NCBI GenBank assembly: GCA_041481445.1
Contig: JBGPBV010000007.1
Location: 5,365 to 69,364 of the forward strand
DNA: 64,000 nt
Origin: Vicinamibacteria bacterium
Lineage (GTDB): Bacteria; Acidobacteriota; Vicinamibacteria; Fen-336
Direction of reading: 5' to 3'
This document shows positions 4,003 through 51,234 of the stretch, piece by piece. The translations under genes were made by a program, and so were the position numbers. How positions within the stretch are numbered: the first letter of the stretch is position 1; each line of letters opens with the position of its first letter. The notes beneath the pieces were generated by a model. That model was not told the origin of the DNA and ran no database searches. It saw only the letters and a program-made list of their open reading frames with translations.

Positions 4003-4904
4003 TCGGCACCGTCCTGCTCGCCGCCGTCACCGCCTCGCCGCCGCCCGTGTTCAGGGCCTCCGTCGAGAAGGTCTACGTGGACGCGTTCGTCAGCCGCGGC
4101 GGCCAGGCCGTCCGCGGCCTGCGCGAGAGCGACTTCGAGCTGCGCGACGACGGAGTGCCGCAGGCGGTGGAGCTGGTCGCCCTGGAACAGGCGCCCCTCA
4201 CCGTCGTCCTCGCCCTCGACACGAGCGGCAGCGTGGCCGGCCGCATGCTGGACGCCTTGCGCGCGGCCGCGCGCGCCCTGGTCGAGGGTCTCCCTGCCCG
4301 GGACCACGTCGGCCTGCTCACGTTCAGCCATCGCCTCGACCTGCGCGCGGGCCCGCAGGCCACGCGCGCGGAGATCCTGGGGGCGCTCGACCACCTGGAG
4401 GCGACGGGGGCGACGGCCCTGCACGACGCGATCTATGCCGCCATGCGCCTGTCCTCGCCCGAGGACCGCCGCTTGGTCGTGGTCTTCAGCGACGGCGCCG
4501 ACAACCGGAGCTGGCTCTCCGCGGACGACGTGCGCGAGGCCAGCCGCCGCACGGGCGCGGTCGTGTACGCGGTCTGCCGGGGCCCGCAGCCGGCGGCGGT
4601 CGTGGACGGCCCCCTCCGCGCCCCGCCGCCCGCGCGCGAGAGCGGCTCCGTGCGCGAGCTGCGGCTGCTGGCGGAGTCCACGGGCGGCCTGTTCCTCGAC
4701 GGCGCCGATCCCGCCGGCGTCCGCGCGCGCTTCCAGAGGGTGCTCGAGGACATGAGCACGCGCTACCTGCTGGCCTTCGTCCCGACCGGACGCCGCGCGG
4801 GCACGCACCGGCTGGAGGTGAAGGTGCGCGCCGGCAAGGGCACCGTGCGCTGCCGGCGCAGCTACGTCGTGGCCCCTCAGTTGCCGTCGGCGGGCACGAA
4901 ATAG
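3999..4904 (+). CDS. VWA (von Willebrand factor A) domain protein
   Basis: MIDAS-like DTSGS motif (LALDTSGSVAG) in a Rossmann-like VWA pattern. N-terminal anchor. Coupled to the upstream TPR gene. Confidence 0.7.
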   Translation: MIGTVLLAAVTASPPPVFRASVEKVYVDAFVSRGGQAVRGLRESDFELRDDGVPQAVELVALEQAPLTVVLALDTSGSVAGRMLDALRAAARALVEGLPARDHVGLLTFSHRLDLRAGPQATRAEILGALDHLEATGATALHDAIYAAMRLSSPEDRRLVVVFSDGADNRSWLSADDVREASRRTGAVVYAVCRGPQPAAVVDGPLRAPPPARESGSVRELRLLAESTGGLFLDGADPAGVRARFQRVLEDMSTRYLLAFVPTGRRAGTHRLEVKVRAGKGTVRCRRSYVVAPQLPSAGTK

Positions 4905-5368
4905 ACGAGCGCGCCCGCCCCGCGCGTCTCCCCCGGTGGTCCGGTGTTCGTGACGACGTACATGAGCTTCACGGTCTGTGGCGGCCGCACGTAGTAGGCG
5001 CCCGAGTTCTGGAAGAAGGCCGGGTTGGCCGCGAGATCGCCCTTGCGCATGTGGAAGAGCCGGACGTCGTCGACCATGAGGATGAGGTCCGTCCCCAGCG
5101 CCTCCGAGCCGATGCGGTAGTTCCAGCCGAGGATGTAGACGGCGCTGGGCGGCGTCCAGGTCTTCTCGCGGACGACCTTCTGCCCCTGGCCGATCGCCTC
5201 GCTCGGGATGTCCAGCCCCTCGACGGACAGCGGGCGGAGCCGCGAGCGGTCGGGCACGGCCGCGCGCACGACCAGGACGGCCAGGAGCAGCAGCGTCCCG
5301 ACCACGGCCAGGAATTCCGTGCGGTGGACCTGGATCGTCGGGCCACGCCAGCCGGAGGGCGAGCTCAT
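4877..5368 (-). CDS. Hypothetical membrane-anchored protein
   Basis: ORF with one N-terminal TM segment (FLAVVGTLLLLAVLVV) and high GC3. ATGA coupling to the upstream gene (5365). Confidence 0.4.
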   Translation of the reverse strand: MSSPSGWRGPTIQVHRTEFLAVVGTLLLLAVLVVRAAVPDRSRLRPLSVEGLDIPSEAIGQGQKVVREKTWTPPSAVYILGWNYRIGSEALGTDLILMVDDVRLFHMRKGDLAANPAFFQNSGAYYVRPPQTVKLMYVVTNTGPPGETRGAGALVYFVPADGN

Positions 5369-6122: not shown

Positions 6123-7961
6123 TCAGGGCCCGATGTAACTGGCCCGCCGCGACTCGAACTCGTCCCAGTAGAGCGTGCCGTTCGCGGTGGGCTTGACGTT
6201 GAGCGCGCCCATGCGCATGAAGTCGACCGAGCTGCGGCTGTTGGCCAGGCCGGTGAGCTGCGACTGGGACACGCCGTCGATCCACAGCTCGAAGGTCCCG
6301 TCGTTCGCGATCGCCGAGCTCGAGCGCTTCCAGTCCAGCTCGACGGAATGCGGGCCGTCGCTGATCGGGAAGAAGCCGGTGTCGGCCTGGCTGTCGTCGT
6401 CCAGCCGGCACCGACCCTCGATCGAGTAGGCGCCGCTGAGGCGCTTGAGCACGATGGCGGCCAGGCGGCGGGTGGGCGCCTCCTCGAAGACGATGAAGAG
6501 GCGCGTGCGGCGGGCCCCGCCCGTCTCGCCGGGGTCGTAGCTGTTGGTGTCGAAGTAGAACCGCGCGCGGTAGCGGTCCTCGTCGAGCGGGCTGTCGTCC
6601 TCGACGAACAGGCTGGCGGTGTCGTTGACCGTCCCCTTGAGGCCCACGGACGTCAACCGCATGGCCGCCAGCACCGACGGGACGAGGTCCCCGCCGCCGG
6701 TGGAGGAGGAGGACCAGGCCGACAGATCCGCGGACTCGAAGCCGTCCCTGAAGATCAGGTCGCGGGCGAACTCCCGGGCGAACACGCCGTACCCCGAGCC
6801 GTCCTGGCCGTTGCTGTTCCAGGCAACGACGAAGCGGCCATCCAGTTGTGACGTCACCGCCGGTAGACGCTGCTTGCCCGTGGTGTACGTGTTGACCTGG
6901 AACTCGTCGCCCTCGGGTGAACCGGTGGCATCGAGGGCGCGGGCGAAGATCCCGTATTGACTGCCGTCCTGCTGCGCGGACTCCCAGACGACCACGAAGC
7001 GGCCGTCGGCGGAGGCGGAGACGCGAGGCACCGCCTGGCCGCCGGTCGTGTACTGGTTCACCTGGAATTCCGGGCCGGGGGCGCCGCTCGGATCGTACTT
7101 CCGGGCGAACACGCCGGCGGTGCCGTTCTGACCATTGCTCTTCCACGCGACGAGAAAGCCTCCGTCGCCGCTCACGGCCACGCTCGGGCTGTCCTGGTTG
7201 CCGGTGGTGTAGGCGTTGGCCCGGAAGCTTCCTTGCGGCACACCCGCCGCGTTGAACCGGCGGCCGAACACTCCGCGTCCGCTCCCATCCCGCGCGCCAT
7301 CGCTCCAGACGACGACGAAGTCGCCCGTCGCGTTCATGCTGACGAAAGGGTAGGCTTGCGCGCCCGTCGTGTAGGTGTTGACGGCGAACTCAGCCCCCTG
7401 GGCGACGCCGGCCGCATCGTACCGTTGCGCGAAGAGGCCTTCGCTGGTTCCGTCCTGAAAGGCGCTCTGCCAGACCACGACGAAGTTGCCGGACCCGTCC
7501 ATGGCAACGGTCGGGTAGTTCTGGCTGTTCGTGGTGTAGGTGTTGACTCGGAACTCGGGGCCAGGGGTCCCGTCGGACTTGAACCGCCGGCCGAACACGC
7601 CGTATTTGCTCCCATCCTGCGTGTAGCTCGGCCACACGACGACCAGATCGCCGGCGGCGTCGGAGGCGACCGACGGAAAGGTCTGGAGGTCGGTCGTGAA
7701 GGTGTTGACGCGGAACTCTCCCGAGCCCAGCGGCGTCCCCGAGGGCGAGAACCGGCGGGCAAAGGCATCGAAGTCGATGCCGTTCGAACCCGACCACGTC
7801 ACCACGAAGTTGCCCGCCGAGTCGGATGCGATCGCGGACTCCCACTGGAAATTCGTCGTATAGGTGTTGACCTGGAATTCAGGTCCGAGTGGGACCTGTG
7901 CCCACGCCCTCGTGGCGAGGAGGGTCCCTACCCAGCAGAAGGCCCAGAGTCGTGTGCGCAT
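6123..7961 (-). CDS. Secreted repeat protein: signal peptide, 7 tandem ~52-aa repeats (beta-propeller-like), C-terminal ConA/LamG-like domain
   Basis: Signal peptide MRTRLWAFCWVGTLLATRAWAQ. Seven repeats of E-F-[QR]-V-N-T-Y-T-T-x-x-Q-x-x-P-x-V-A-x(4)-G-x-F-V-V-V-W-x-S-x-x-Q-D-G-S-x-x-G-V-F-G-R-R-F. A ~210-aa C-terminal beta-rich domain. Confidence 0.6.
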   Translation of the reverse strand: MRTRLWAFCWVGTLLATRAWAQVPLGPEFQVNTYTTNFQWESAIASDSAGNFVVTWSGSNGIDFDAFARRFSPSGTPLGSGEFRVNTFTTDLQTFPSVASDAAGDLVVVWPSYTQDGSKYGVFGRRFKSDGTPGPEFRVNTYTTNSQNYPTVAMDGSGNFVVVWQSAFQDGTSEGLFAQRYDAAGVAQGAEFAVNTYTTGAQAYPFVSMNATGDFVVVWSDGARDGSGRGVFGRRFNAAGVPQGSFRANAYTTGNQDSPSVAVSGDGGFLVAWKSNGQNGTAGVFARKYDPSGAPGPEFQVNQYTTGGQAVPRVSASADGRFVVVWESAQQDGSQYGIFARALDATGSPEGDEFQVNTYTTGKQRLPAVTSQLDGRFVVAWNSNGQDGSGYGVFAREFARDLIFRDGFESADLSAWSSSSTGGGDLVPSVLAAMRLTSVGLKGTVNDTASLFVEDDSPLDEDRYRARFYFDTNSYDPGETGGARRTRLFIVFEEAPTRRLAAIVLKRLSGAYSIEGRCRLDDDSQADTGFFPISDGPHSVELDWKRSSSAIANDGTFELWIDGVSQSQLTGLANSRSSVDFMRMGALNVKPTANGTLYWDEFESRRASYIGP

Positions 7962-8143
7962 TCGGGATCTCCGTTCAGCGCGTCGTGGCCGCGGAGGAGG
8001 GAGGGGGAGATTCTGGGGTGCGGTGTCGAAGCTGTCAATGACCGCCGCGCGTGCCGGGGCGCCCGGCCGCGCCGGTCAGGGTCCGATGTAGACAAGGGTC
8101 TGACAACTTGCGGCCGTTGTCGTTTCAGATGAATAAATTGAAG

Positions 8144-8217
8144 TGGGCCTGGAAGGACTCGAACCTTCGACTAGCCGGTTATGAGCCGGCCGTTCTAACC
8201 AACTGAACTACAGGCCC
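8144..8217 (-). tRNA. tRNA-Met (anticodon CAT), elongator-type; tRNA-Ile2 (lysidine) not excluded
   Basis: Reverse complement GGGCCTGTAGTTCAGTTGGTTAGAACGGCCGGCTCATAACCGGCTAGTCGAAGGTTCGAGTCCTTCCAGGCCCA folds as a cloverleaf. 7-bp acceptor stem, GTTC/GAAC D-stem, anticodon loop CTCATAA, T-loop TTCGAGT. No initiator features (1-72 pair present, no GGG/CCC anticodon stem). CCA not encoded. Confidence 0.8.
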
Positions 8218-8234: not shown

Positions 8235-9050
8235 TCAGCGCAGGGTCACGGAGCGGAAGACCCCGCCCGAGGCCCACTCGCGGAACCAGCGGAAGAGCTG
8301 AAGGGCGGTGGGCGCGCGCCGGCCTCCGCGGGAGAGTACGGACGCCACCGCCTTGCCGAGCGGCTTTCCCGCCACGAGATCGGAGAGGAGGCCATGCGCG
8401 TGGCGGGAGAGATCCTGGCGCCAGATCGAGTAGTTGCGGCGGTAGAGGGCCACCCAGGTGTCCTTGCGCGCAAAGGAGGGATGGCCGTGGTCTCCGTCGC
8501 GCACGCTCTGCAGGTAGGCGTTGACGGGATAGCGGAAGGAGAGCAGGCGGAAGGCCTCGATGGGAGCCAGGCGCGCGCGCTCCCACTTGTCGGCAGGCAC
8601 CGCCGCGATCTCCGCCTCGCCCAGCGGCGCCACCTCCGGCGCGTCGAAGACCTCGGCCATCGCCAGCTCCAGGCGCGCCAGGTCGTGGCACACCTCCGGT
8701 CGCTTGGCGCCCTTCCAGCGGGCCACGAAGGCGGGCAGGTGGTCGCCCAGGCGGTTCAGGGTGTACGAGACCGAGGGGTGGGCGGCGACGTAGTCGCGCA
8801 CGAGGTCGCCGAACCCACGGTCGCCCAGGTAGTGCTTGAGGGCGGGATAGTCCGATTCCAGCGCCTCCTCCATCCGGAGCAGGTACATGCCCTGGTAGAT
8901 CTCGACGCGCGACACGGGGTCGAGCGACCGCGAGGGCAGGATCACGTCGTCGATCGTCGCGCGGCCCAGCGCGCGTCGGGCGCGCGGCGAGGCCACCGCC
9001 GCCTTCACGTCGCCGGGATGGACCACGACCTCCTGCATCCAGCGCTGCAT
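8235..9050 (-). CDS. DUF2063-family partner protein of the MNIO (HvfC/BufC-like)
   Basis: 271-aa protein starting MQRWMQEVV in the lower part of the 589-aa track ORF. 32 nt downstream of the DUF692 gene. Size and position are typical of DUF2063 partners in MNIO RiPP operons. Confidence 0.6.
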   Translation of the reverse strand: MQRWMQEVVVHPGDVKAAVASPRARRALGRATIDDVILPSRSLDPVSRVEIYQGMYLLRMEEALESDYPALKHYLGDRGFGDLVRDYVAAHPSVSYTLNRLGDHLPAFVARWKGAKRPEVCHDLARLELAMAEVFDAPEVAPLGEAEIAAVPADKWERARLAPIEAFRLLSFRYPVNAYLQSVRDGDHGHPSFARKDTWVALYRRNYSIWRQDLSRHAHGLLSDLVAGKPLGKAVASVLSRGGRRAPTALQLFRWFREWASGGVFRSVTLR

Positions 9051-9082
9051 GCGCGGGAGGGGGACCCCGGCGGCGGCCGGCC

Positions 9083-9928
9083 TCACCGGGCGGCGGCGAG
9101 CAGGGCCTGCTCGCGGAAGGCGCCCGCCTTGAGCGCCTCCGCGTGCACGACCTCGAACTCGGGGATGTTCTCGTCCCACTCGTAGAGGGTGGCCACGTTG
9201 CCGGTGCGCCGGCAGGAGCGGCGATAGAGGTCCCAGACCTCGTCGATGGCGTGATCGCTGTGGGTGTCGATGATGTGCGTGCCCTTGTGCGTGTGACCGG
9301 CCAGGTGGTACTGGACCACGCGGTCGGCGGGGACGTTGTCGACGTAGACCCGCGGGTCGAATCCGTGGTTGAAGGAGCTGACGTACACGTTGTTGACGTC
9401 GAGCAGCAGCCCGCAGTCCGCCTCCCGGGCCAGGCGCGAGAGGAACTCCCACTCCGGCATCGTCGAGTCCTTGAACTCGACGTACGAGGAGGGGTTCTCG
9501 AGGACGAGCGGCCGCTCCAGGATCTCGGAGACCTGCCGCACGCGGGCCGCGGTATGGCGCAGCGCCTCCTCCGTGTACGGCATGGGCAGGAGGTCGTGGA
9601 CGTTGCGCCCGGCCACTCCCGTCCAGCAGAGGTGGTCGGAGACCCAGTGCGCGCGCGTCCTTTCGGCCAGGGCCTTGAGCTTGCGGAGGTACTCGCGGTC
9701 GAGGGGATCCGTGCTGCCGATCGACATCGACACGCCGTGCAGCGCGACCGGGTAGCGCTCGGCCACGCCGTCCAGGACGTAGAGGGGCCGCCCGCCCGTG
9801 TCCATGAAGTTCTCGGAGAGGACCTCGAACCAGTCCACCTTCGGCCACTTTTCGAGGATGTGGGGGAAGTGGACGGTCCTCAGGCCGATGCCGATGCCGA
9901 GGTCGGGAAGGTTCCAGCGGTTGCCCAC
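9083..9928 (-). CDS. DUF692 / multinuclear non-heme iron oxidase (MNIO; MbnB/HvfB/BufB-like) TIM-barrel enzyme
   Basis: 281 aa with a xylose-isomerase-like TIM barrel and His/Asp/Glu metal-ligand pattern (HGVSMSIGS, HWVSDHLCW, VLENPSSY, LLLDVNNVYV, HLAGH, DTHSDHAID) characteristic of UPF0276/DUF692. Confidence 0.75.
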   Translation of the reverse strand: MGNRWNLPDLGIGIGLRTVHFPHILEKWPKVDWFEVLSENFMDTGGRPLYVLDGVAERYPVALHGVSMSIGSTDPLDREYLRKLKALAERTRAHWVSDHLCWTGVAGRNVHDLLPMPYTEEALRHTAARVRQVSEILERPLVLENPSSYVEFKDSTMPEWEFLSRLAREADCGLLLDVNNVYVSSFNHGFDPRVYVDNVPADRVVQYHLAGHTHKGTHIIDTHSDHAIDEVWDLYRRSCRRTGNVATLYEWDENIPEFEVVHAEALKAGAFREQALLAAAR

Positions 9929-10023
9929 GCGGTCTGCCCTGTATGAAGACGAATGAGGCCGGGGAAGGGGAAGAGGCCCGCAAAGGCCTCCTCCCCGTGC
10001 GCAATCAGATCAGACGATCGACG

Positions 10024-10470
10024 TTACCGGCCCTTGCAGCCGCTCTTGCCCTTGCAGGAGCTCTTGCCGGCCTTGTCCTTCGCCGCCTTCTCCATCACCC
10101 CCTTGGCGTGCTCGGCCGAGAGCGGGACCTTGCAGCCGCCCTTGCCCTCGCACGAGTTCTTGCCCGCGCAGCCGGCGTCGCCACCCTGGCAGCCGCCCAT
10201 GCCCTTGCACTTGTTCTGGGCCTTGCACTCGTGCTTGGCGGAGGTGGCGCAGCTCCCCTTGCCCGAACAGGCGTTCTTGGCGTCCGCGCCCTGGCCCTTA
10301 CACTTGTTGAAGCCCTTGCAGACGTGCGGTTCGGGCTTGTCCGCGGCCGGCGTCCCCGTCGTCTTGGCCGCCGCCGCCGGCTTCTTGGTGTCGTCCGCGA
10401 GCGCCCTGCTGCCCGCCATCATGCCCGCGGCCACCACGCCCATGACCTTCGTGAACTCTCTCCGGTCCAT
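10024..10470 (-). CDS. Cys-rich RiPP/metallophore precursor (HvfA/bufferin-like, 12 Cys), twin-arginine signal peptide
   Basis: MDRREFTKVMGVVAAGMMAGSRALA carries a Tat motif (RREFTK). Lys/Gly-rich core with 12 Cys spaced mostly C-x5-C in C-[KESA]-G-[KQM]-G-x units (CKGQGA, CSGKGSC, CKGMGGC, CEGKGGC, CKGKSGC). Strong SD AAGGAGA 7 nt upstream. First gene of the MNIO operon. Confidence 0.7.
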   Translation of the reverse strand: MDRREFTKVMGVVAAGMMAGSRALADDTKKPAAAAKTTGTPAADKPEPHVCKGFNKCKGQGADAKNACSGKGSCATSAKHECKAQNKCKGMGGCQGGDAGCAGKNSCEGKGGCKVPLSAEHAKGVMEKAAKDKAGKSSCKGKSGCKGR

Positions 10471-33897: not shown

Positions 33898-35097
33898 CTA
33901 CTCCGCCCCTCCGCCCCCCTGCTTGCGCAGGAACGCGGGGACGTCGAGGTCGAGGCGTCCGCCCCCGGAGGCCGCCTTCGTGGTCGGGGTCTTGCGGTAG
34001 AACCCGCCCGCCTCCGTCGGCGCCATCGACGCCGACTGCGCGGAGGGGCCGACGTAGTTGGCGAGATCGACGGGAGTCGGCGCCACCTTGCGCGAGCCCT
34101 TGTTGAAGCCGGTGGCGATCACGGTGACCTTGACCGCGTCCCCCATCGACTCGTCGGTCACGATGCCGTAGATCACGTTGGCCTCGGGGTCGGCGACCTT
34201 GGTGATCAGGCTGGTGGCCTCGGAGGCCTCGGCCAGGCTGAGGTCGATCCCGCCCGTGATGTTCACGATGATCCCGCGCGCCCCCTCGATCGAGCTGTCC
34301 TCGAGCAACGGGTTGGAGACGGCGCGCTGGGCCGCCTCCACCGCGCGGTTCTCTCCCTCCCCGATCCCGGTGCCCATCACCGCATGGCCCATCCCCTTCA
34401 TCACCGCGCGCACGTCCGCGAAGTCGAGGTTGATCTGGCCGGGGACGGTGATGATGTCCGAGATGCCCTGCACGGCCTGGCGCAGGACGTCGTCGGCCAC
34501 GCGGAAGGCCTCGGAGACGGGGGTGTGCCGCGCGACCGTCTGCAGGAGCCGGTCGTTGGGGATCGCGATCACGCTGTCCACGCACTCGCGGAGCTGGGCC
34601 AGGCCTTCCATGGCCTGGGCCATGCGCCGCTTGCCCTCCAGGCTGAAGGGCAGCGTCACCACCGCCACCGTCAGCACGCTGCCGTTCTCGCCTCCGAGCT
34701 GGCTGGCAATGGAGGCGACCACGGGGGCGGCGCCCGTGCCCGTCCCCCCGCCGAGGCCGGTGGTGATGAACACCATGTCCGACCCCTCGAGGGCGTCGCA
34801 CACCTTCTCGGTGTCCTCCACCGCGGCCTGCCGCCCCACGTCGGGGTTGGCGCCCGCGCCCAGGCCCTTGGTGAGCTTGCCCCCGATCTGGATCTTGACC
34901 GGGGCGCGGTTGGAGCGCAGGGCCTGGAGGTCGGTGTTGATGGCGATGAACTCCACGCCCTGCAGGCCCGAGGCGATCATGCGGCTGATGGCGTTGCCGC
35001 CGCCGCCGCCCACGCCGACCACCTTGATGTGGGCGCCGCGCGTCTCGTCGTCCGCGAAGGTGATGCGGCCGGGACCGTCGTTCATTTCGTTCGGCAT
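33898..35097 (-). CDS. ftsZ: Cell division GTPase FtsZ
   Basis: GGGTGTG tubulin signature ([19 protein letters not shown]), T7 loop NLDFADV, conserved C-terminal peptide [19 protein letters not shown] upstream. Confidence 0.97.
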
Positions 35098-39114: not shown

Positions 39115-40184
39115 CACGCCACCTTCCCTTCGAGCAGGTCGGCCACGCGGGCGGCGGCGTCGGGGCGGGCCAGCTTCCGCGCCGCCTCCTCCATCGCGGT
39201 GAGCCGGGCGGGGTCGCCGAGCAGCTCGGTGAGGACGGCGGTCAGGCGCTCGGGCGTGAGGTCCTTCTCCTCGATCATGCGCGCCGCCCCCGCCTCCTCC
39301 AGGGCGCGGGCGTTGCTCGTCTGGTGGTCGTCCGCGGCCTGCGCGAAGGGGACGAGCACCGAGGCCTTGCCGGCCGCCGCCAGCTCGGCGGCGGTGGTGG
39401 CGCCGCTGCGGCACAGGACGAGGTCGGCCTGGGCGAAGCGCGTCTCCATGTCGTCGAGGAAGGGCAGCACCTCCGCCTTGCGTCCGGCCGCGTTGTAGGC
39501 CTCCGCCACCTCGTCGCGGGAGGCGGGTCCGGTCTGGTGGACGATCTTGAGCCGGTCCGGCCCCGGCAGCAGGCGGGCGGCCGCGGTCAGCGTGCGGTTG
39601 ATGATCCGCGCGCCCTGGCTGCCCCCGAAGGTGAGCAGGGTCAGCGGCGGCACGTGCCACTTGGGCACCAGCTTCGCGAAGCCGCCGCGGACGGGGTTGC
39701 CCGTCACCACGCCCTTCTTCCCGAAGAAGCGGCGCGCCTCTTCGTACGAGCAGGCGGCATGGCGCACGAACGGCTTGAGGACGCGGTTGGTGAAGCCGGG
39801 CTTGGCGTTGGGCTCGAGCAGCACCGTCGGGATGCGCAGGAGGGCGGCCACGAGGACGGTCGGCCCGCCCGCGTAGCCGCCGACGCCGAGCACGGCCAGG
39901 GGCCGCAGGCGCCGCACGAGCAGGACGGCCTTGACCATGGCCCACGGCAGCGCGAGGAGGCCCTTGACCATCCGTACGGGCCCGACGCCGTTGAGAGGGA
40001 GGATGGGCAGCAGCTCCAGGTCGTAGCCCGCTTGCGGGACCAGGCGGGACTCGAGTCCCCGCGGCGTCCCCACGAAGACCACGCGCGTCTGGGCGTCGCG
40101 GGCCTTGAGCTCGTCCGCGACCGCGATGCCGGGGAAGAGATGCCCTCCCGTGCCGCCGGCCGCGATGAGGATGGTTCGTGCCAT
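39114..40184 (-). CDS. murG: UDP-GlcNAc:undecaprenyl-PP-MurNAc-pentapeptide GlcNAc transferase MurG
   Basis: [10 protein letters not shown]-terminus and GT28 C-terminal domain. Confidence 0.95.
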
Positions 40185-50065: not shown

Positions 50066-50509
50066 CTAGATCCCGAACCCGGAGAGCACCCGCCCGTCCT
50101 CGTCCGTGAACGGCTCCTTCTTGAACAGGCGCTCGGTGAGGCGCTTCTGGTTCCAGACCGCAAGGTGGTTCTGCAGGCCGAGCACGCTCACGTCGCCGGC
50201 CATGGCCGCGCTCTCGCGCAGGAGCTGGGGGAGCACGACGCGGCCCTGCTTGTCCATCGTCACCGTCTGGCCGAAGAAGTTCACGCGGTCGAGGAAGCGC
50301 AGCTTCGAGGGATTGGTCGACGGCACCTCGGCCAGGCGGCGCTCGATCTCGAGCCACACCGCCATCGGATACACGCGCACGTATTCGCCGGTGACGCTGG
50401 TGACGAACAGCTCCGCGCCGTACTGCTGCTCGATGAGCAGACGGAAGCCGTTCGGGACCTTGAGACGTCCCTTGTCGTCGACGCGCGCCGGATGGTTGCC
50501 GCGCAGCAC
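50066..50509 (-). CDS. mraZ: Transcriptional regulator MraZ (canonical copy, first gene of dcw operon)
   Basis: Two MraZ/SpoVT-AbrB-like repeats (DDKGRLKVP and DKQGRVVLP). GTG start (track shows MLRGNHP). Confidence 0.9.
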
Positions 50510-50688: not shown

Positions 50689-51189
50689 TCACATCCGCTT
50701 GGGTTTTTCCTGTGGATGACCGTGCTCGGACGGCCCCGTGGGAGCGGGAGCGGGGGGAAGCGGCCATTGGACGTCGAGGGTAGCGTCCTCGAGGACCTTC
50801 TCGGACTCGGCCACGAAGGCCTCCCAGCGCTCGGGGGCCCAGACCTCGAACCGGTTCAGGACGCCGATGACCAGGGCCTCGCGGTCGAGCTGCGCGCCGA
50901 GGCGCAACGGCGCGGGCAGGAGGATGCGGCCCTGCACGTCGAGCTCGCAATCGACGGCGCGGCTGGTGAGCAGCCGCGTGAGCGCCTTGGCCGGCTTGCT
51001 GAACGCGGGCAGGGCGCGGAGCTGGCTCTCGAGGCGCGACCACTCGGACGGCGGGTAGGCGGCCAGGCACTGATCGAGCACGGTGACGACGAGCCGCGGC
51101 GCGCGATCGGCGAGCGCGCGGCGGAACGCCGCGGGCACCGGGAGGCGTCCCTTGGGATCGATCCGGTGGCGATAAGTCCCTTTGAACAC
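50689..51189 (-). CDS. MraZ paralog (second, divergent MraZ-family regulator)
   Basis: VFKGTYRHRIDPKGRLPVPAAFRR matches the MraZ N-terminal consensus (MFRGxxxHxIDxKGR). A second DxxGR repeat is present (DVQGRILLP). Likely GTG start at 51189; the track ORF extends to ATG 51234 through the GTGG repeats. Confidence 0.65.
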   Translation of the reverse strand: MFKGTYRHRIDPKGRLPVPAAFRRALADRAPRLVVTVLDQCLAAYPPSEWSRLESQLRALPAFSKPAKALTRLLTSRAVDCELDVQGRILLPAPLRLGAQLDREALVIGVLNRFEVWAPERWEAFVAESEKVLEDATLDVQWPLPPAPAPTGPSEHGHPQEKPKRM

Positions 51190-51234
51190 AGCGAGCTGGA
51201 AGTATTCCACACTTTCTTCCACTTTTCCACACAT
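51190..51234 (-). promoter_or_regulatory. Second GTGG-repeat array (TGTGGAAAA GTGGAAGAAA GTGTGGAATA) immediately upstream of the mraZ paralog
   Basis: Three GTGG motifs at about 10-bp spacing, the same repeat type as the operator upstream of canonical mraZ. Confidence 0.45.

Follow-up and report, generated by a model that had tools for sequence, protein, structure and literature searches.

Seven-bladed beta-propellers and jelly-roll sandwiches are both well-known folds, and secreted proteins that pair one with the other are a well-known type. The best structural match to the propeller discussed here is CylK, a Friedel-Crafts alkylase, itself a seven-bladed propeller that binds Ca2+ in the loops between blades and carries an RTX-like Ca2+-binding domain at its N-terminus; its active site (Arg105 and Tyr473) lies at the domain interface (PMC8916777). 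The jelly roll that follows it resembles, among others, Cip1 and X122, for which neither detectable lyase activity nor polysaccharide binding was found (PMC10916295). We analysed a 64,000-nucleotide stretch of a Vicinamibacteria bacterium genome (assembly GCA_041481445.1, contig JBGPBV010000007.1, positions 5,365 to 69,364; hereafter the window), in which one minus-strand gene, the target, encodes a 612-residue protein with a tandem repeat region followed by a jelly roll. We propose that this protein is a secreted, non-catalytic recognition protein in which a seven-bladed propeller presents one variable face and a promiscuous jelly roll binds a glycan or an envelope polymer, a reading that we hold at a probability of about 0.55. 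For the target gene itself the outcome is better annotation, with no evidence of a new mechanism. The novelty lies elsewhere: the libraries tested describe neither sequence family, although members number in the tens of thousands, and the propeller has an unusually uniform scaffold and has undergone tandem paralogue expansion.

The repeat family and its predicted propeller

The repeat region of the target holds seven copies anchored by [VA]NxYTT at residues 31, 85, 139, 194, 248, 301 and 356. Compared pairwise, the copies share 47% identity on average (38-54%), whereas shuffled sequence gives 7.5 +/- 0.8%; a hidden Markov model (HMM) of the blade detects exactly seven, each with an E-value between 1e-28 and 1e-32. 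A sequence-only reading of this DNA had recognised the seven tandem repeats but gave their length as about 52 residues; the anchors are spaced 53-55 residues apart, which corresponds to a period of about 54. Tandem Repeats Finder detected no DNA-level repeat that matches the protein copies. The repetition is present at the protein level only, which rules out a recent amplification of blades.

To describe the blade we used 462 blades from 66 full-length homologues (alignment A1), which give the consensus xEFxVNxYTTxxQxxPxVAxDxxGxFVVVWxSxxQDGSxxGVFGRRFDxxGxPxG. The tryptophan is conserved in 100% of blades, the glycine preceding FVVVW in 98%, the asparagine and glutamine in 96% each, the late glycine in 95%, F3 in 93%, the aspartate and glycine of QDGS in 92% and T9 in 91%, values that bear out, for the main residues, the earlier description of the NTYTT..Q and FVVVW..S..QDGS positions as invariant. 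Positions 12, 14, 15, 31, 33, 39 and 40 are near random (3.5-3.85 bits), and about half of each blade is a nearly fixed scaffold while the remainder varies. Equivalent blades in different proteins share 52.0% identity and different blades in different proteins 49.2%; different blades within one protein, at 50.9%, barely exceed the latter value, which gives no evidence of concerted evolution. The repeat is old, saturated and constrained to one scaffold.

AlphaFold (AF2) modelling of the full target from the 66-homologue alignment returned a mean predicted local distance difference test (pLDDT) score of 88.3. Residues 22-400 form 28 beta-strands, four per repeat, at a pLDDT of about 90, and the strands assigned by DSSP within a blade are (G)xEFxV, QxxPxVAx, FVVVWxS and GVFGRRF. 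The final strand of repeat 7 (residues 391-400) continues directly into the C-terminal domain. In Foldseek searches against the PDB, seven-bladed propellers matched across about 390-430 columns. CylK (7roo, 7ron and 7fh6) aligned at an E-value of about 1e-14 with a root-mean-square deviation (rmsd) of 4.4 A over about 427 columns and 14-15% identity; the rhamnose-glucuronate lyase 7esl of PL42, GH145 (5mul), the PL24 ulvan lyase 6byp, Dfer_1899 (5hx0) and the lectin CV39L (6gxs; TM score 0.69, normalised to the target) were also recovered, with identities across the propeller matches of 10-15%.

The blade count is supported independently of AlphaFold. When 265 family proteins were scanned with the blade HMM and adjacent blades were grouped, runs of seven predominated (421 runs), followed by runs of 14 (37), 21 (8), 28 (5), 35 (1) and 42 (1), and runs shorter than seven were almost confined to the most diverged giant proteins. 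Run lengths of seven and its multiples indicate that the seven-blade propeller is the structural and evolutionary unit. On the strand pattern, the structural matches and these runs together, residues 22-400 are best modelled as a closed seven-bladed beta-propeller of four-stranded antiparallel blades, as the sequence-only reading had suggested; the closure of the ring and the innermost strand are inferred.

Since enzymes head the Foldseek matches, the propeller might itself be catalytic, either as a hydrolase or lyase resembling GH145, PL42 or PL24 or as an alkylating or lyase enzyme resembling CylK or Vgb. Relatives of the target also show weak, partial matches to GH43 blades, most of them at 20-32 bits against PF04616 (cutoff 32.2), with a summed score of 45.9 in one protein (P0083). 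We regard a catalytic propeller as very unlikely. None of the GH43 matches contains a significant individual stretch, and GH43 enzymes are five-bladed. All columns conserved at 80% or more among the 66 homologues belong to the shared blade consensus, the exceptions being linker glycines and a shift of register in blade 1. Among these columns no polar residue is specific to a single blade, and hence there is no conserved asymmetric constellation of the kind that an enzyme active site needs. The N-terminal Ca-binding domain and interface arginine and tyrosine that CylK requires are missing from the target, identity to the structural matches is low, and the propeller module is repeated six or more times in giant adhesin-like proteins.

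The repeat could not be placed in a named family, in line with the sequence-only reading. In an hmmscan of the target against Pfam-A (2025) at E <= 10 we saw just Big_6 and Slp noise, and in seven larger relatives Pfam left the propeller region uncovered, assigning other modules and sub-threshold GH43 and CopC fragments. No match reached the gathering score of the WD40, Kelch, NHL, PQQ, YVTN/lactonase, BNR/Asp-box, FG-GAP, SBBP, DUF5122/delta-60, RCC1 or TolB/PD40 propeller families of Pfam. NCBIfam (2026) gave a single weak match, to NF053835 'PDIAV motif-containing lipoprotein' (25.6 bits, E 7.5e-6, residues 88-356), which in relatives of the target reaches 38-59.5 bits and spans several blades; these scores lie below the 90-bit equivalog cutoff, and the lipobox cysteine is missing from the target. 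NF053835 is probably a sister family built from similar blades, to which the target does not belong, and its PDIAV motif probably corresponds to the PxVA strand of the target repeat. Searches of PDB sequences with the protein and with family, single-blade and C-terminal profiles gave chance-level matches only (the eIF3b propeller at E 0.3-0.8), and a literature search on the motif strings and on 'PDIAV' found nothing relevant. Several family members carry the Joint Genome Institute (JGI) name 'phosphoheptose isomerase', which we reject as spurious, there being no domain to support it; it looks like a propagated mis-annotation.

The family is nonetheless very large. An exhaustive phmmer search with the propeller alone (residues 28-397) against 1.84 billion representatives of 50%-identity clusters recovered 43,605 proteins at E <= 1e-3, 30,082 at E <= 1e-10 and 12,813 at E <= 1e-30. 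Member length reaches about 7,900 residues, with as many as 33 stretches matched in one protein, and in the giant proteins (P0241-P0385) six or more complete seven-blade propellers of the target repeat can occur. Relatives combine the propeller with dockerin, SLH, the Por_Secre_tail of the type IX secretion system (T9SS), cadherin/Big_9, HYR/TSP3, CarboxypepD_reg and plastocyanin-like modules, partners that are hallmarks of extracellular or surface proteins.

The target architecture, a protein of about 615 residues with a propeller and a matching C-terminal domain, is common and also occurs in tandem arrays. At least six head-to-tail paralogues lie on contig Ga0534153_0004210 (15 kb, JGI metagenome 3300052990; L081, 3075-14709) and at least two on a second locus (L087, 386-4229), at 50-65% identity to the target. 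A protein identical to the target (P0001) is present in NCBI assembly GCA_041499675.1, a metagenome-assembled genome (MAG) that also holds the dispersed paralogues P0075 and P0080. The arrays represent a lineage-specific expansion, seen in the very metagenome from which the target-bearing MAG was recovered; that an array belongs to the same genome as the window is not proven, the link being the shared sample 3300052990 and MAG GCA_041499675.1. No conserved gene neighbourhood was found, as paralogue and homologue loci share no neighbours with the window. This enormous repeat family, its tandem paralogue arrays and the promiscuity of the C-terminal module described below had all been missed from the letters alone.

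The C-terminal module and a proposed recognition function

Modelled alone, the C-terminal domain forms a 15-strand sandwich (pLDDT 89.5, predicted TM score (pTM) 0.88). It has 231 PDB matches at E <= 1e-3, the top 50 of which are all jelly rolls of the concanavalin A (ConA)-like class. The best is the PL20 endo-beta-1,4-glucuronan lyase 2zzj (E 1.6e-10, TM 0.71), followed by the X122 domains of Teredinibacter (TtX122), PL36 and PL7 alginate lyases and the calreticulin lectin domain; further matches include the lectin-like Hc-N domains of clostridial neurotoxins (BoNT) and the Vibrio sialidase lectin domain. The domain is accordingly a two-sheet jelly roll of about 200 residues of the ConA-like lectin/glucanase fold, and the concanavalin- or LamG-type sandwich envisaged in the sequence-only reading is right at fold level. 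Its conserved motifs are DGFESGxLSxWS, ExRYRARFYFDPN, PHxIELDW, LWIDG and the terminal YFDxFESRRxSYIGP. In the tail FESRRxSYIGP the isoleucine and glycine are invariant and the proline nearly so among 34 diverse homologues.

A profile search with this domain recovered 1,223 proteins at E <= 1e-3, and the module occurs in Chloroflexota, Acidobacteriota, Gemmatimonadota and Binatia. The module is nearly always the last domain, behind many unrelated secreted passengers that include M10 metalloproteases (in Binatia and 'Deltaproteobacteria' MAGs), right-handed beta-helices, a GH16-like protein of Anaerolinea thermolimosa, an NHL/SdiA-type propeller, Calx-beta repeats (in a Gemmatimonadota MAG), and CAP/SCP, PKD, YD-repeat, LamG_3 and ELWxxDGT-repeat proteins. 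Several host proteins have a Pro/Thr-rich linker ahead of the module, and two-copy tandems also occur. This terminal place behind unrelated passengers and linkers is the behaviour of a carbohydrate-binding module (CBM) or an anchor and not of a catalytic core. Along the RYRARFYFD strand, R66, R68, R70, Y72 and D74 point to one side and Y67, A69, F71 and F73 to the other (domain numbering), an alternation in the alignment that suggests a conserved basic face, as would suit the binding of an anionic ligand.

The same domain could be read as a carbohydrate-active enzyme, with the jelly roll as a divergent lyase of the PL20/PF14099 type acting on a uronic-acid polymer and the propeller providing substrate binding or processivity. 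The run of PL20, PL36 and PL7 structures near the head of the fold matches favours this, as do distant homologues that score 21.5-27.7 bits against PF14099 (Polysacc_lyase) and align with positions 1-207 of its 210; 8 of the 34 module members also match it weakly. The motifs ExRYRARFYFD, PHxIE and YFDxFESRR, which lie on three long strands, contribute conserved Arg, His, Tyr and Glu residues, and jelly-roll lyases such as PL7 have Arg/His/Tyr sets. Every one of the PF14099 scores, however, falls below the 29.9-bit cutoff, and the target's own domain is not matched by the model at all. The module furthermore trails catalytic passengers to which it is unrelated (M10 protease, beta-helix, GH16-like), joined by Pro/Thr linkers, and the related folds Cip1 and X122 lacked detectable lyase activity. 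The domain is likely to be a remote homologue of the PF14099 family, in which membership is not established, and we consider a lyase function unlikely.

The position of the module invites another explanation, in which the jelly roll serves for sorting or attachment, comparable to the T9SS C-terminal domain, dockerin or SLH. It would direct diverse passengers to a machinery for secretion, processing or surface display, with its invariant ...SRRxSYIGP end as the recognised tag. It nearly always closes the chain of secreted proteins that are otherwise unrelated, at the place that dockerin, SLH or Por_Secre_tail occupies in other proteins of the propeller family, and the final I-G-P is invariant or nearly so although model confidence there is low; this terminal SYIGP region may be a functional terminal motif. 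About 210 residues is large for a tag, however, and neither a transmembrane segment nor a basic tail follows the module, nor does a conserved partner gene lie nearby. The host phyla have very different envelopes, two-copy tandems exist, and the fold is that of lectins and lyases. On balance we find a sorting role distinctly improbable, less so than a catalytic propeller.

Export of the target is predicted from its N-terminus, MRTRLWAFCWVGTLLATRAWA followed by QVPLG, which has the basic, hydrophobic and A-x-A segments of a Sec-type signal peptide, with A-W-A at positions -3 to -1. The string AxAQxPLGPEF is retained in the family consensus around the predicted cleavage point, and AF2 places a low-confidence helix at residues 2-16, in agreement with the signal peptide noticed in the sequence-only reading; its assignment comes from reading the sequence. 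We sought a lipobox ([LVI][ASTVI][GAS]C) at this N-terminus, which ends in TRAWA before Q22, and found none, the sole cysteine (C9) lying inside the hydrophobic core; a lipoprotein identity for the target is ruled out by the missing lipobox.

Taken together, these observations point to a Sec-exported, soluble, two-domain extracellular protein. Its propeller would be a non-catalytic recognition or scaffold module from a very large, ancient and extracellular repeat family. In an antiparallel meander, loop 1 (VNxYTTxx) and loop 3 (xQDGSx) would lie on the same face of the propeller, and the hypervariable positions fall at the strand ends adjoining these two loops. That face would join a fixed polar framework to variable residues and is our candidate binding surface, on the grounds that the variable positions lie beside conserved loops of the same face. 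The jelly roll (residues 401-612) would act as a CBM-like or anchoring module for a glycan or cell-envelope polymer, which it may contact through a conserved basic face comprising R66, R68, R70, H141, R208 and R209 (domain numbering). The gene, its repeats, both folds, the family sizes, the domain combinations and the lack of blade-specific conserved residues are established here; a binding role in place of a catalytic one, the face involved and what is bound are inferred.

It is just as possible that the fixed N, T, T, Q and D residues stabilise the fold as a network or provide metal sites. Across tens of thousands of proteins the N/T/T/Q and QDGS residues are identical in all blades, a constancy that suits a motif for fold stabilisation or metal binding at least as well as it suits the carbohydrate site per blade proposed in the sequence-only reading, which is one possibility among several and is unsupported.

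Several points weigh against a recognition function. The placement of both loops on one face follows from strand topology and not from a mapped surface, and the high variability could mean no more than a lack of constraint at the surface. Most of the closest structural neighbours, for either domain, are enzymes (CylK, PL42, GH145, PL24 and GH43 for the propeller; PL20, PL7 and PL36 for the jelly roll), and the conserved Arg/His/Tyr/Glu set of the C-terminal module would be compatible with a lyase site. Cip1 and X122, the nearest characterised look-alikes of the jelly roll, showed no polysaccharide binding in published tests either, which means that binding is no safe default for such a fold. 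The orientation of the propeller relative to the C-terminal domain is uncertain in the model, whose full-length pTM is 0.69.

A bolder version of the recognition hypothesis is that the family forms a bacterial diversifying-recognition system, with a rigid seven-fold scaffold, a hypervariable face, paralogue arrays and giant multi-propeller surface proteins. We think this doubtful, a little more so than a lyase function. If true, it would be a propeller-based counterpart of variable binding scaffolds, with which soil bacteria such as the Vicinamibacteria recognise a shifting range of cells, phages or polymers. The repeat would then define a major undescribed superfamily of more than 40,000 clusters, and the jelly roll a new family of anchors to the envelope or to glycans.

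Whichever function proves correct, the 54-residue repeat (about 43,600 clusters) and the module of about 210 residues (more than 1,200 proteins) are without a Pfam model, a name or a characterised member. Family definitions would give an annotation to many secreted proteins and giant surface proteins now called 'hypothetical' in metagenomes from soil and water, in Acidobacteriota, Gemmatimonadota, Planctomycetota, Chloroflexota and other groups. At 612 residues the target is a compact representative for experimental work and a candidate for a first biochemical characterisation. Should binding by the variable face be borne out, the family would become relevant to microbial adhesion and polymer recognition, and as a consensus-like scaffold for protein engineering.

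The gene and its surroundings

The target open reading frame (ORF) is intact and begins with ATG. Its third-position GC content (GC3) of 0.89, in a window of about 72% GC, identifies it as the real coding frame; long ORFs that overlap it on the opposite strand and in other frames are the usual artefacts of high-GC DNA. The promoter-like site ahead of it matches the consensus at 10 of 12 positions, with one such site found against 0.2 expected from shuffles, and it is a consensus match alone, not a functional proof. Features of the gene and its neighbours are collected below.

Coordinates of the target gene, its parts and neighbouring features (positions within the window)
Feature	Position	Strand	Remarks
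Coding sequence	6123..7961	-	612 aa + stop (stop codon 6123-6125); GC3 0.89
Shine-Dalgarno-like GGAG	7969..7972	-	7 nt ahead of ATG; read from sequence
Promoter-like site, sigma-70-like TTGACA-17-CAGAAT	8010..8038	-	about 50 nt upstream of start codon
Signal peptide, aa 1-21 (MRTRLWAFCWVGTLLATRAWA)	7899..7961	-	sequence features; predicted cleavage before Q22
Repeat 1, aa 27-80	7722..7883	-	most degenerate copy, without QDGS loop motif
Repeat 2, aa 81-134	7560..7721	-	anchor motif and blade HMM
Repeat 3, aa 135-189	7395..7559	-	anchor motif and blade HMM
Repeat 4, aa 190-243	7233..7394	-	anchor motif and blade HMM
Repeat 5, aa 244-296	7074..7232	-	anchor motif and blade HMM
Repeat 6, aa 297-351	6909..7073	-	anchor motif and blade HMM
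Repeat 7, aa 352-400	6762..6908	-	anchor motif and blade HMM
Concanavalin-A-like jelly-roll module, aa 401-612	6126..6761	-	domain model, 2zzj match, sub-threshold PF14099 in relatives
Tail FESRRxSYIGP, aa 603-612	6126-6155	-	
Small downstream ORFs, 195 aa and 163 aa	5365-5952 and 4877-5368	-	overlapping; 163-aa ORF with N-terminal hydrophobic segment
tRNA-Met (CAT)	8143-8217	-	between RiPP cluster and target gene
Bufferin-type RiPP cluster	8235-10470	-	upstream of target, same strand
HvfC/DUF2063 partner	8235-9086	-	RiPP cluster member
MNIO maturase	9083-9928	-	NF050167 MNIO_BufB, 366.6 bits vs cutoff 310
RiPP precursor, 148 aa	10024-10470	-	twin-arginine-like signal, CKG-rich Cys/Gly/Lys repeats; BufA2 24.8 bits vs cutoff 60
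FtsZ	33901-35097		
MurG	39117-40184		
MraZ, first copy	50066-50509	-	TIGR00242 71-80 bits, below cutoff
MraZ, second copy	50689-51234	-	TIGR00242 128.8 bits

A bufferin-type cluster for a ribosomally synthesised and post-translationally modified peptide (RiPP) lies upstream of the target, and its precursor exceeds the BufA2 model in both length and repetitiveness. We rejected a functional link between the target and this MNIO/bufferin operon because the tRNA-Met gene and a separate promoter-like site intervene and the neighbours of paralogues are unrelated; homologues of the target never adjoin such genes. Neither downstream ORF has a Pfam or NCBIfam match.

The sequence-only reading had placed the gene beside an accessory-like region. 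The GC content around the target is about 4-6 points lower than in the flanks, a mild drop, and neither a direct repeat of the tRNA-Met 3' end nor an integrase was found in the window, so a genomic island at the tRNA-Met gene was rejected. The window is ordinary chromosome and includes the cell-division cluster dcw (about 33-51 kb); the accessory-like label finds no support. The window FtsZ falls in a 90%-identity cluster in which the named members are Vicinamibacteria, and the organism is thus probably an acidobacterium of that class from soil. An exact copy of this FtsZ, like the target protein, is present on a 176-kb contig of GCA_041499675.1, and an exact MurG occurs on a different, 83-kb NCBI contig, which indicates at least two near-identical assemblies of the organism; two adjacent MraZ paralogues stand upstream of dcw.

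Comparison with known systems

Among curated models, NF053835 is the only one with sequence-level similarity to the target repeat; the target differs from it in carrying a different C-terminal domain and no lipobox. The other likenesses are structural. The two-domain GH43 enzymes share the order of a propeller and then a sandwich and give the top Foldseek E-values for the full-length model, but the rmsd exceeds 20 A over the whole chain, and the target has seven blades in place of five, no PF04616 match and no conserved blade-specific acidic residues, which sets it outside GH43. The C-terminal domain shares its jelly-roll fold with PL20 2zzj and PF14099 at 14% identity and below the Pfam cutoff, and differs from them in being a promiscuous terminal appendage and not a stand-alone catalytic domain. 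X122 and Cip1 offer a nearer comparison in one respect, in that the target module has a comparable conserved Arg/His patch (PMC10916295).

For the propeller, the PLL/CV39L lectins resemble the target in being secreted, closed, seven-bladed and of similar size, with highly similar tandem blades; the identity to 6gxs is 12%, no match exists at sequence level, and the likeness is one of fold only. CylK is the best structural match to the propeller alone and is likewise seven-bladed. No profile-level sequence match between CylK and the target was found, and the target propeller starts right after the signal peptide, with neither the RTX-like domain nor the interface arginine and tyrosine that define the alkyl-halide-utilising enzymes CylK and BrtB, so that it falls outside that group. 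The Ca2+ sites in the blade-joining loops of CylK may nevertheless provide a parallel for the conserved polar loops of the target.

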